Virus record (IMG/VR): IMGVR_UViG_2534682164_000007
Strand: one strand, 5' to 3'
Origin: a virus
Lineage: Duplodnaviria; Heunggongvirae; Uroviricota; Caudoviricetes
Length of the DNA: 4,796 nucleotides
Shown: positions 1,078 through 4,652 of the stretch, piece by piece
Layout of the letters: each line of letters opens with the position of its first letter
Numbering within the stretch: the stretch's first letter is position 1
The notes under the pieces: generated by a model
Seen by the model: the letters and a program-made list of their open reading frames with translations, nothing else
The model's database searches: none
Told to the model about the DNA's origin: nothing
Program-made: the position numbers and the translations under genes

Positions 1078-1572
1078 ATGGCTGGAACGGCGGGGCGTTC
1101 CGGGCGTCGCCCCAAGCCAACGGCGCGCAAGGCGCTGGCCGGAAACCCCGGCAAGCGAGCCCTGAACAAAGATGAACCTGTTTTTACGCCCATCAAAGGT
1201 GTTGAGCCACCAGAGTGGTTCGCTGAAGAAGATCTCCCTCTCGCCACGATCATGTGGCAACTGACAACCAAAGAACTCTGCGGTCAGGGCCTGCTGTGCG
1301 TGACTGACCTGGCGGTACTTGAGCGGTGGTGCGTGGCCTATGAGTTCTGGCGACGTGCCGTGAAAAATATTGCCATACAGGGCAACACCATCACCGGTGC
1401 AATGGGCGGCAGGGTCAAAAATCCGGAGCTGACCGCCAAAAAAGAACAGGAGTCCGAGATGAGCAGCACGGGGGCAATGCTCGGACTCGACCCCAGCAGC
1501 CGCCAGCGTCTGATTGGCCTGGCGGGGCAGAAGAAAGCCACTAACCCGTTTCTGAAAATTATCGAATCATGA
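1078..1572 (+). CDS. Terminase small subunit (P27-family-like)
   Basis: 164-aa ORF from ATG 1078, with SD AGGAG at 1065-1069 (8-nt spacing). The track's GTG 1069 start overlaps the SD and is rejected. It has a basic N-terminus ([31 protein letters not shown]), has typical small-terminase size, and sits immediately upstream of, and is translationally coupled to, the large subunit (ATGA overlap at 1569-1572). Confidence 0.85.
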
Positions 1573-3302
1573 GCCGGAAATCTTACCCCAACGTAAATGC
1601 TGCAAATCAGTATGCCCGGGATGTCGTGCGCGGAAAGATTGTTGCCTGCCAGTTTGTGATTCAGGCCTGCCAGCGCCATCTTGATGACCTGATGGCGGAA
1701 AAAAGTAAGTCGTTTCGTTACCGCTTCGACAAGGACCTGGCTGAACGGGCCGCGAAATTTATTCAGCTGTTGCCGCACACCAAGGGGGAGTGGGCATTCA
1801 AACGGATGCCCATCACGCTGGAGCCGTGGCAGCTATTTGTGATCTGCTGTGCGTTTGGCTGGGTCAATAAAGGCACCCGGTTGCGCCGCTTCCGGGAGGT
1901 GTACACCGAAATCCCCCGTAAGAACGGCAAATCAGCAATCTCTGCCGGTGTTGCCCTGTATTGTTTTGCCTGTGATAACGAGTTTGGCGCGGAAGTGTAT
2001 TCCGGTGCCACGACAGAGAAACAGGCGTGGGAAGTCTTTCGCCCGGCGCGACTGATGTGTAAACGCACACCCATGCTGACGGAAGCGTTCGGGATTGAGG
2101 TTAACGCCTCAAACATGAACCGTCCGGAGGATGGCGCGCGGTTTGAACCGCTGATCGGCAACCCAGGTGATGGTTCATCACCCCACTGTGCCGTGGTTGA
2201 TGAATATCACGAGCATGCCACCGATGCGCTTTATACCACAATGCTTACCGGGATGGGGGCGCGACGTCAGCCACTGATGTGGGCCATCACCACCGCCGGG
2301 TACAACATTGAGGGGCCGTGCTACGACAAGCGGCGGGAAGTCATCGAGATGCTCAACGGCTCGGTGCCTAACGATGAACTGTTCGGGATCATCTATACCG
2401 TTGATGAAGGTGACGACTGGACCGGCCCGCAGGTGCTGGAAAAAGCCAATCCAAATATTGGCGTGTCGGTTTATCGCGAATTTTTGTTAAGTCAGCAGCA
2501 GCGTGCGAAAAATAACGCCCGTCTGGCAAACGTCTTTAAAACAAAACACCTCAATATCTGGGTGTCGGCGCGTTCGGCGTATTTCAACTTGGTGAGCTGG
2601 CAGAGCTGCGAGGATAAATCACTGACCCTTGAGCAGTTCGAGGGGCAGCCGTGCATTCTGGCCTTTGACCTGGCGCGTAAGCTGGATATGAACAGCATGG
2701 CGCGACTTTATACCCGCGAGATTGACGGTAAAACGCATTACTACAGTGTGGCCCCGCGTTTCTGGGTACCGTATGACACGGTGTACAGCGTCGAGAAAAA
2801 TGAAGATCGACGGACAGCCGAACGCTTTCAGAAATGGGTGGAAATGGGCGTTCTGACCGTTACCGATGGTGCGGAGGTGGATTATCGCTACATCCTCGAG
2901 GAGGCCAAAGCGGCGAACAAAATCAGCCCGGTCAGTGAGTCACCCATCGACCCCTTCGGGGCGACCGGGTTGTCACATGACCTTGCTGATGAAGACCTGA
3001 ATCCCGTCACTATCGTCCAGAACTTCACCAATATGTCCGATCCGATGAAAGAGCTGGAAGCAGCGATTGAATCGGGACGTTTTCATCATGACGGCAATCC
3101 CATCATGACCTGGTGTATCGGCAACGTGGTCGGCAAAAACATGCCGGGTAACGATGATGTGGTGAAACCCGTCAAAGAGCAGGCGGAAAACAAAATCGAT
3201 GGTGCAGTTGCGCTGATTATGGCGGTTGGCAGAGCCATGCTGTACGAGAAAGAAGACACGCTGTCTGACCACATTGAGTCCTACGGGATCCGCTCGCTTT
3301 AA
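1569..3302 (+). CDS. Terminase large subunit (ATPase plus nuclease; HK97/Terminase_1-like)
   Basis: 577-aa uninterrupted ORF. It has a deviant Walker A P-loop ([14 protein letters not shown], nt ~1909-1950) and a Walker B-like hydrophobic stretch ending in DE ([10 protein letters not shown]). The C-terminal half carries acidic residues consistent with an RNase H-like nuclease domain ([11 protein letters not shown]...). Size and position between terS and portal fit. Confidence 0.92.
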
Positions 3303-3313
3303 CTGAGGTAATT

Positions 3314-3496
3314 ATGATCATGCTGATTCTCGCGCCTCTGGTGGGCGTGCTGGGTGCGCTTTTGCTGGCGTATGGTGCCTGGCTGATTTATCCCCCGGCG
3401 GGTTTTGTTGTTGCCGGGGCGCTGTGCCTGTTCTGGTCGTGGCTGGTGGCGCGATATCTCGACCGTACACGGCAGTCTGTCGGCGGAGGTAAATAG
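3314..3496 (+). CDS. Small hypothetical membrane protein (60 aa, two predicted TM helices, charged C-terminus)
   Basis: [67 protein letters not shown] at 3305-3308 lies 5 nt before ATG 3314 (an alternative ATG is at 3320). It has host-like codon choice, fits exactly between the terL stop (3302) and the portal start, and its stop TAG 3494-3496 overlaps the GTG at 3496. Function cannot be assigned from sequence. Confidence 0.6.
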
Positions 3497-4652
3497 TGTT
3501 CTTTTCGGGATTATTTCAACGAAAAAGCGATGTGCCGGTGACCACGCCAGCAGAACTGCTGATGCTATCGGGCTGTCATACGACACCTATACCGGAAAGC
3601 GGATCAGTAGCCAGCGGGCCATGCGCCTGACGGCGGTCTATTCTTGCGTCAGGGTGCTGGCAGAGTCTGTTGGTATGCTGCCCTGCAGTCTCTACAAAAT
3701 CAGCGGTACCCTGAAAACACGGGCGGTGGATGAACGACTGCATAAGTTGGTTTCGGCAAAACCTAATGGCTACATGACACCGCAGGAATTCTGGGAGCTG
3801 GTTATTGTCTGCCTGTGTCTACGGGGGAATTTTTACGCCTACAAGGTAAAGGCACTGGGAGAAGTGGTGGAGCTTCTTCCGATAGATCCGGGCTGTGTGG
3901 AACCGAAGCTGAACAGCCAGTGGCAGCCGGTTTATCAGGTGACGTTTCCGGATGGTTCCGTGGATGTGTTGACCCAGAATGAAATCTGGCATGTGCGCAC
4001 CCTGACGCTGGATGGATTTGTCGGGCTGAATCCCATTGCGTATGCGCGTGAGGCCATTTCACTGGCAGCGGCAACCGAGGAGCACGGTGCCAGGTTGTTT
4101 AGTAATGGTGCGGTGACATCCGGTGTGTTGCGTACGGAACAAAAGCTCACGCCGGATGCTTACGAGCGTCTGAAGAAAGATTTTGAGGAGTGTCACACGG
4201 GGCTTGGCAATGCTCACCGCCCGATGATTCTGGAAATGGGGCTGGACTGGAAGTCGATGGCGCTGAACGCCGAGGACAGTCAGTTCCTGGAAACCCGCAA
4301 GTTTCAGCTGGAAGAAATCTGTCGTCTGTTCCGGGTGCCGTTGCACATGGTGCAGAACACCGATCGCGCCACCTTCAACAATATCGAAGAGCTGGGGCTG
4401 GGATTTATCAACTATTCACTGGTGCCGTATCTGACCCGCATCGAACAGCGGATCAACACCGGACTGGTACGAAAAAGTAAGCAGGGCGTTTATTACGCCA
4501 AATTTAACGCCGGGGCGTTACTGCGCGGGGATATGAAGTCCCGTTTTGAAGCCTACGCCACCGGGATCAACTGGGGAATTTACTCTTCCAATGACTGCCG
4601 CGACCTGGAAGATATGAATCCGCGTCCCGGTGGTGTAATGCCGATCAGTTAA
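3496..4652 (+). CDS. Portal protein, HK97 family; N-terminal ~30 codons are in a different frame from the rest of the gene (apparent 1-nt indel near 3588), so possibly a pseudogene or a sequencing error
   Basis: The long ORF (frame of 3621..4652) encodes portal-like sequence (KRISSQRAMRLTAVYSCVRVLAESVGMLP..., 415 aa in the track). Its in-frame upstream extension to ATG 3405 overlaps the small membrane ORF by 92 nt and looks like non-protein read-through. A second frame opens at GTG 3496 and reads [31 protein letters not shown] before stopping at 3628-3630. The two frames join cleanly if one T is inserted after 3588 (P-YTGKRISS). The first in-frame ATG of the long frame after the upstream gene is 3621, with no clear SD. 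Confidence 0.85.

Follow-up and report, generated by a model that had tools for sequence, protein, structure and literature searches.

The window, by which we mean the whole stretch of 4,796 nt analysed here, corresponds to the left arm of the late region in a prophage of the P27/ST64B/e14 type. It carries the Rz spanin gene (87-563), in which the Rz1 lipoprotein ORF is embedded in the +1 frame (319-501) to form a classic embedded spanin pair, then an HNH endonuclease gene (606-956) and the gene for a P27-family small terminase (1069-1572). The S21-type holin and the lysozyme of the element are encoded just upstream of the window and make up, with Rz/Rz1, a complete lysis cassette. The large terminase gene terL, with its TerL_ATPase and TerL_nuclease domains, spans 1569-3302 (+), and an HK97-family portal gene starts at 3496 (+). 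Between these two lies a short ORF at 3314-3496 (+), which begins with ATG, encodes 60 aa and ends with TAG. The cos sequence of phiP27, CGCCCGCCCC, is not present in the window.

The portal gene of this copy is broken. Its N-terminus (MFFSGLFQRK...) is read from the GTG at 3496 and closes after 44 codons (3496-3630, +), while the rest of the portal coding sequence (PF04860) continues at 3559-4652 (+) in the frame of the ORF 3405-4652. The cause is a 1-bp deletion at 3558/3559, where a G is missing in comparison with ST64B and phiP27 (GAACTG-CTGAT versus GAGCTGGCGGAT). The frameshifted allele is common to four IMG/VR contigs (L006-L009), and a full-length portal is present in 73 of 80 close relatives. 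Further downstream, IS4 replaces the 3' end of the portal gene from ∼4617-4635. Similarity to intact portals ends at ∼4634, and the segment ∼4617-4796 matches the end of IS4 with 97% identity. The window recurs with one mismatch in 4796 nt in three enterobacterial chromosomes (CP104423.1, CP022457.1 and JBEAAA010000004.1). Past the portal gene, these chromosomes carry the IS4 transposase and a further IS, after which come the host genes bamE and recN. The prophage is thus a defective remnant with no head or tail genes downstream of the portal, and whatever role the 60-aa protein has in a phage cannot be exerted by the copy in this window.

The short ORF is packed tightly against both of its neighbours. 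The terL stop codon TAA (3300-3302) is separated from it by a gap of 11 nt, which holds the Shine-Dalgarno sequence GAGG (3305-3308, +), 5 nt 5' of the ATG. At the other end, stop and start overlap in TAGTG (3494-3498, +), with the TAG at 3494-3496 sharing its G with the portal GTG at 3496-3498. The Shine-Dalgarno sequence of the portal gene, GGAGG (3485-3489, +), lies within the short ORF, whose final codons GGC GGA GGT AAA (Gly-Gly-Gly-Lys) also serve as the portal ribosome-binding site. The original prediction, a tightly embedded, hydrophobic two-helix ORF with a basic tail between terL and portal, furnished with its own Shine-Dalgarno sequence and overlapping the portal GTG, agrees with what we find. 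It had also proposed co-translation with the structural genes. The frameshift at 3558/3559 means that coupling to a working structural operon holds for the relatives and not for the window. With 0.607, the GC content of the ORF is higher than the 0.54 of its neighbours, which could be attributed to its Gly/Ala/Leu content. An opposite-strand ORF of 95 aa (3299-3586, −) covers the entire region. It shows no sign of being a gene, and the deep amino-acid conservation lies on the + strand.

The encoded protein has the character of a small membrane hairpin. Hydropathy computation gives a GRAVY of 1.155 and zero charges over residues 1-46. Helix 1 (residues 2-25; 3317-3388, +) is Gly/Ala-rich, with G11, G14 and G21, and includes the stretch Y20-G-A-W23. 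It is followed by the tight, uncharged turn Y26-P-P-A-G30 (3389-3403, +), which contains a hydropathy dip at Y26-P27-P28 and would face the periplasm. The hydrophobic section of helix 2 comprises residues 27-46 (3392-3451, +). All charges (R47, D50, R51, R53 and K60) are found in the basic, poorly conserved C-terminal tail (residues 47-60; 3452-3493, +), which is probably cytoplasmic. AlphaFold2, with the family alignment as input, predicted two helices at residues 2-25 and 27-57 with a mean pLDDT of 73.

The original prediction held that no family could be assigned from sequence. This has been superseded: comparison with known prophages identifies the 60-aa ORF as an allele of ymfR, an already named and catalogued prophage gene. 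At the DNA level it is 98.7% identical to ymfR of the cryptic prophage e14 of E. coli K-12, and the protein differs in a few residues from e14 YmfR, Sb3 and L37. The genes for the latter two, sb3 of Salmonella phage ST64B and L37 of phiP27, are equivalents that occupy the same position between terL and portal. The HMM searches proposed with the prediction returned a full-length match to phrog_502, a "membrane protein" family (E=2.8e-28; residues 1-55 aligned to positions 3-57 of the 58-position profile), and none in Pfam. More broadly, sequence searches of Pfam, NCBIfam, PADLOC and PDB with the protein or the family gave no meaningful match. RefSeq names the K-12 gene product "protein YmfR" or "IPR020297 domain-containing protein YmfR".

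DNA resembling ymfR is present in 1362 of 5426 complete E. coli genomes, or about a quarter. Across the 24 genomes sampled from these, genes for the terminase large subunit and the phage portal protein flank ymfR in every full-length row. Literature that mentions ymfR does so in gene lists or as an integration locus, and we found no functional study among it; a search for small membrane or transmembrane proteins beside terminase and portal genes likewise yielded nothing relevant. Phage records treat the gene inconsistently. ON470584, ON470603, ON470580 and PQ793804 label the ymfR homologue "head-tail joining protein W". The label appears to be an error that arose from gene position, a gpW-type name having been given to YmfR because it fills the slot between terL and portal and has a similar length. 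In other records, such as that of Shigella phage SfV, the homologue is missing from the annotation altogether.

Family searches place YmfR in a large and diverse group. A word-indexed search of 90% identity clusters found 166 relatives, all from Enterobacteriaceae. When 1.84 billion representatives were searched with a profile, 423 clusters (50% identity) reached E<=1e-3, and nearly all of these were 45-80 aa long. The members share the signature G..G....[SA]YGAW[LI].Y.PAG[FY]I..G.LL, with the core G..G....YGAW..Y.PAG, which is far more specific than mere hydrophobic composition. The protein of the window has the motif residues G14, Y20, G21, A22, W23, Y26, P28, A29, G30 and G35, and its turn coincides with the best-conserved segment of the PHROG 502 family. 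All 51 diverse members that we assembled match phrog_502, including an unannotated 53-aa ORF of SfV (see below). PHROGs 7105 and 4810 are satellites of PHROG 502 with more diverged members. Distant members gave no match by tblastn in cultured phages, where such short, low-complexity queries are filtered out.

Judged by the positive-inside rule, the distribution of charges in the family points to an inner-membrane hairpin whose N- and C-termini are both cytoplasmic and whose minimal turn is periplasmic. The N-termini contain 321 K/R against 88 D/E and the C-termini 232 K/R against 169 D/E, and the turn is essentially uncharged, with 17 K/R among 862 residues. Five relatives of 102-122 aa (P0160, P0187, P0197, P0233 and P0265) are tandem two-copy fusions of the hairpin, a hint that the hairpin may work as a dimer or higher oligomer.

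Purifying selection acts on the family, above all on the membrane core: the median dN/dS of enterobacterial alleles is 0.29 (225 pairs), with ∼0.2-0.3 in the core and less constraint in the tail. The conserved C-terminal GG[EKD] of the family coincides with the portal ribosome-binding site. This poses the question whether the ORF might have no protein function at all and be a chance ORF, or a spacer that passes ribosomes from terL to portal. That the portal Shine-Dalgarno sequence is encoded in the 3' end of the ORF speaks for such a spacer, and GGAGG can indeed explain the conserved GG[EKD]. What it leaves out is the amino-acid motif, which is kept over 423 clusters and down to ∼30-40% identity despite diverged DNA, the low dN/dS of the core, and a hairpin architecture that is retained beyond sequence detection, for example in gp3 of Streptomyces phage Chymera. 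Conservation thus largely refutes this explanation, and we consider it extremely unlikely.

To describe the genomic context we used 100 diverse loci, 80 from viral contigs and 20 from genomes that include Halopseudomonas, Sphingopyxis, Reyranella, Rhizobium, Shinella, Sulfitobacter, Pseudaeromonas, Mangrovibacter and Edwardsiella. In phages whose portals belong to the HK97 family, the hairpin gene is part of the late operon for packaging and head formation. By Pfam, a PF04860 portal is the downstream neighbour in 70 of 75 non-redundant loci, and TerL is the upstream neighbour in 60 of 70. With local HMMs, terL and portal both adjoin the hairpin gene in 78 of the 100 loci and portal alone does so in a further 17, giving 95 portal-adjacent loci. 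The remaining five were not scored as portal-adjacent; two of them (L116 and L167) end at a contig end or have a broken portal frame, and the others are L122, L173 and L174. Among the 100 loci there were no bacterial homologues outside head modules. The ORF is conserved, neither absent nor disrupted in its relatives, which answers the synteny check put forward with the original prediction; none of the refuting findings named there was encountered. Its position is kept across phages of Alpha- and Gammaproteobacteria whose portals are only ∼30% identical.

The link to the portal gene is closer than that to terL. Some of the 17 portal-only loci are artefacts of truncated contigs or of our choice of start codon, and the rest carry genuine inserts between terL and the hairpin gene (L097/L110, L105-107, L109, L169 and L171). 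No insert between hairpin and portal genes was seen among the loci scored as portal-adjacent. In L105-L107, L169, L171 and L097/L110, which are environmental and alphaproteobacterial loci, the hairpin-portal pair is set apart from terL by an additional 0.4-1.4 kb; the insert in L105 includes a 229-aa ORF. In 68 of 72 non-redundant loci (94%), the hairpin stop codon overlaps an in-frame portal start, as TGATG (40), TAATG (15), TAGTG (7), ATGA (5) or TTGA (1). The conserved portal N-terminus (M.GLFG or MFFSGLF) starts exactly at the overlapping codon, which confirms this codon as the portal start. We considered whether portals preceded by a hairpin have a special N-terminus and rejected the idea, as the M.GLFG type also occurs in portals without one.

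A comparison with SfV shows the hairpin and portal genes moving together. The window is ∼96% identical to SfV through terL up to ∼3222, where a sharp mosaic junction lies 80 nt before the terL stop. Past this point the last ∼27 codons of terL, the hairpin gene and the portal gene are all replaced together. This joint exchange places the hairpin gene in the recombination module of the portal. The exchanged unit begins at the terL tail, and the C-terminal tail of TerL is generally thought to contact the portal. In the place of ymfR, SfV (L002, NC_003444) encodes the 53-aa family member at 2289-2450, which overlaps the terL stop codon in ATGA. The annotated portal start of SfV, at 2392, falls inside this ORF and has probably been set too far upstream. 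Taken together, the hairpin gene stays with the portal gene when recombination or insertions break the junction between terL and portal.

This context bears on the suggestion, made in the original prediction, that the ORF is a moron. Here, the gene would be expressed from the repressed prophage and benefit the lysogen by superinfection exclusion or by blocking DNA injection. Like gp15 of HK97, YmfR is a small inner-membrane protein encoded within a structural operon (PMC3594210). The ORF has also stayed intact in decayed prophages, both in e14 and in this window with its broken portal gene, and an assembly collection contains the identical protein in 5102 of its indexed blocks. An intact ORF of 183 nt in a clonal lineage is, however, weak evidence of selection. 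A moron is by definition an independent unit of transcription that has its own promoter and its own terminator (PMC3594210), and a consensus scan of the + strand from 2801 to 3812 revealed neither promoter-like nor terminator-like sites. Instead, the ORF is coupled on both sides, with 11 nt to terL and a stop codon inside the portal start. Its position is conserved across phages of Alpha- and Gammaproteobacteria, unlike that of sporadic morons, and the sampled loci place homologues in head modules. The moron reading therefore fits poorly, and we regard it as improbable.

The original prediction also drew a parallel with holins and antiholins. A holin, antiholin or pinholin-like protein that sets the timing of lysis would match YmfR in size, in its two transmembrane helices and in the charged C-terminal tail; with both ends inside, as the positive-inside rule suggests, this is a class II topology. 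Helix 1, rich in Gly and Ala, resembles SAR-type domains, and one of the 51 relatives has a weak match to Pfam Phage_holin_10 (E=6e-4). The likeness goes no further than topology. The protein of the window has no Pfam holin match at E<=1, and hhalign gives a probability of 0.3% against the S21-type holin of the same element. That holin belongs to the complete lysis cassette 3 kb upstream, with HNH, small terminase and large terminase genes intervening, and the family members adjoin portals, not endolysins. A function in lysis timing thus appears very improbable.

To see how far the arrangement extends, we sampled 14 cultured phages with HK97-family portals. A two-helix hydrophobic ORF abuts the portal gene in four of them (Vibrio K270, Ralstonia YO136_1, Vibrio pVa-7 and, as gp3, Streptomyces Chymera), and P27, ST64B and SfV add to these from beyond the sample. 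The other ten have no hairpin ORF; they comprise Moraxella, Acinetobacter, Halomonas, Caulobacter (W2), Burkholderia (E228), Serratia, Lachnospiraceae, Streptococcus (Javan113), Bacillus (Gamma) and Staphylococcus (phiSa2wa) phages. HK97 itself runs from terL directly into the portal gene without a hairpin gene. The original prediction had taken this as the norm for HK97-type packaging modules; that is right in part, as it applies to HK97 but not to the hairpin-bearing phages named above. Presence of the hairpin is thus patchy among HK97-type phages, yet its position is fixed wherever it occurs. Chymera gp3 (L195; 981-1163) is a two-helix hydrophobic protein of 60 aa between terL and portal, with no detectable similarity to PHROG 502 or any other PHROG. 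It may be either an extremely diverged member of the family or an independent invention of actinobacteriophages.

We propose, with a probability of roughly 35%, that YmfR is a late inner-membrane protein that acts together with the portal. According to this model, YmfR would be made only late in infection, by ribosomes that continue into the portal gene. At the inner membrane it would, for example, hold or concentrate portal subunits and thereby promote efficient formation of the dodecameric ring from which procapsid assembly starts. We know of no membrane step in the assembly of HK97-type procapsids. In T4, portal initiation is membrane-bound and involves the portal protein gp20 together with gp40 and YidC (PMC9958956), and by analogy this system is the only precedent for the role proposed for YmfR.

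Because many HK97-type phages, HK97 included, lack the hairpin, YmfR would be an accessory helper and not a core part of the assembly pathway. Likewise, any role it has must be dispensable, given that HK97 and ten of the 14 sampled phages do without it. Capsid-forming PICIs of Proteobacteria have terL after the head genes and are hence uninformative on a role in head assembly. Several points weigh against a partnership with the portal. The best-conserved residues lie in the membrane core and the periplasmic turn, whereas variability is found in the cytoplasmic tails, the parts that would need to contact the portal. A tethering of the mRNA to the membrane during translation is doubtful, as a 60-aa protein is fully translated before most of it leaves the ribosome. 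The linkage could also simply reflect the presence of the portal ribosome-binding site in the 3' end of the hairpin gene.

The same pattern of conservation, highest at the intramembrane Gly/Ala residues and the aromatic turn YGAW..Y.PAG and not in the cytoplasmic tails, leads to a different possibility. YmfR may be a late membrane effector directed at the host envelope, with no involvement of the portal; its position would then reflect only shared late expression and operon packing. By oligomerising, the Gly/Ala-rich hairpins could disturb the inner membrane or lower its potential in part; alternatively, they could bind to a conserved membrane protein of the host. As a result, the DNA of superinfecting phages might be shut out in late infection, or the energy state or timing of lysis might be tuned. 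In line with this, natural tandem duplicates suggest self-association, a patchy phylogenetic distribution is what an accessory function would show, and PHROGs files phrog_502 under "moron, auxiliary metabolic gene and host takeover". None of the 51 family members, however, matches a PADLOC defence model at E<=0.01. Such an effector would also leave unexplained why the stop/start overlap is specific to the portal in 94% of loci, why inserts are seen between terL and the hairpin gene but none towards the portal gene, and why the hairpin gene is swapped jointly with the portal gene. We regard an effector of this kind as the main rival of the portal model, possible but somewhat unlikely. A confirmed role with the portal would reveal a membrane step in head assembly beyond T4; should such a role be refuted, the family would probably be a late-expressed membrane effector.

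The name ymfR, PHROG 502 and IPR020297 were already known, and the portal-linked synteny is a testable lead, not a new kind of element. Three findings make YmfR a testable candidate for a portal factor, namely the hundreds of clusters in the family, the 94% stop/start overlap and the joint mosaic movement. More tentatively, and with considerable doubt, we suggest that, in Proteobacteria and perhaps also in Actinobacteria, a substantial minority of the phages that have HK97-family portals possess a dedicated, co-translated two-helix inner-membrane partner that tethers or nucleates the portal ring. If this were true, membrane-initiated head assembly, so far a peculiarity of T4, would be widespread and could be recognised by a simple genetic marker.

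Related to YmfR among known systems are the hairpins of SfV (the 53-aa ORF) and of the phrog_7105 and phrog_4810 members in Ralstonia YO136_1, Vibrio K270 and pVa-7, which likewise form a two-helix hairpin encoded directly before an HK97-family portal. They differ from YmfR in giving weak to moderate matches to the phrog_502 profile, with ∼30% identity or less, in the degenerate state of the YGAW..PAG turn and in their assignment to separate PHROGs.

Other proteins resemble YmfR in position or in shape. The gpW protein of lambda has a similar length and occupies the same slot between terL and portal; it is soluble and binds the filled head. Identity with gpW can be rejected, as the original prediction had anticipated: YmfR has no Pfam gpW match and, with its GRAVY of 1.155 and 46 consecutive uncharged residues, is far too hydrophobic. 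The S21 pinholin of phage 21, with ∼70 aa, resembles YmfR in size, in two transmembrane helices with the ends inside, in a basic C-terminal tail and in a Gly/Ala-rich helix 1. The two show no homology, and the element has its S21-type holin in the upstream lysis cassette.

HK97 gp15, an inner-membrane superinfection-exclusion protein encoded by a moron inside the virion structural operon (PMC3594210), is similar in kind and setting. It is expressed from the prophage as an independent transcription unit, occurs sporadically and has chromosomal YebO homologues. In contrast, ymfR shows neither promoter-like nor terminator-like sites, is coupled in translation and occurs exclusively beside portals.

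The model for the role proposed here is T4 gp40. In T4, gene 40 lies apart from the portal gene, and the portal belongs to a family other than that of HK97. A sequence relationship between gp40 and YmfR was not found, nor would one be expected. What the two may have in common is function: gp40, with the host protein YidC, is a phage-encoded chaperone of the membrane-bound initiator gp20 and ties formation of the portal ring to the inner membrane (PMC9958956), as YmfR would do for portals of the HK97 family.
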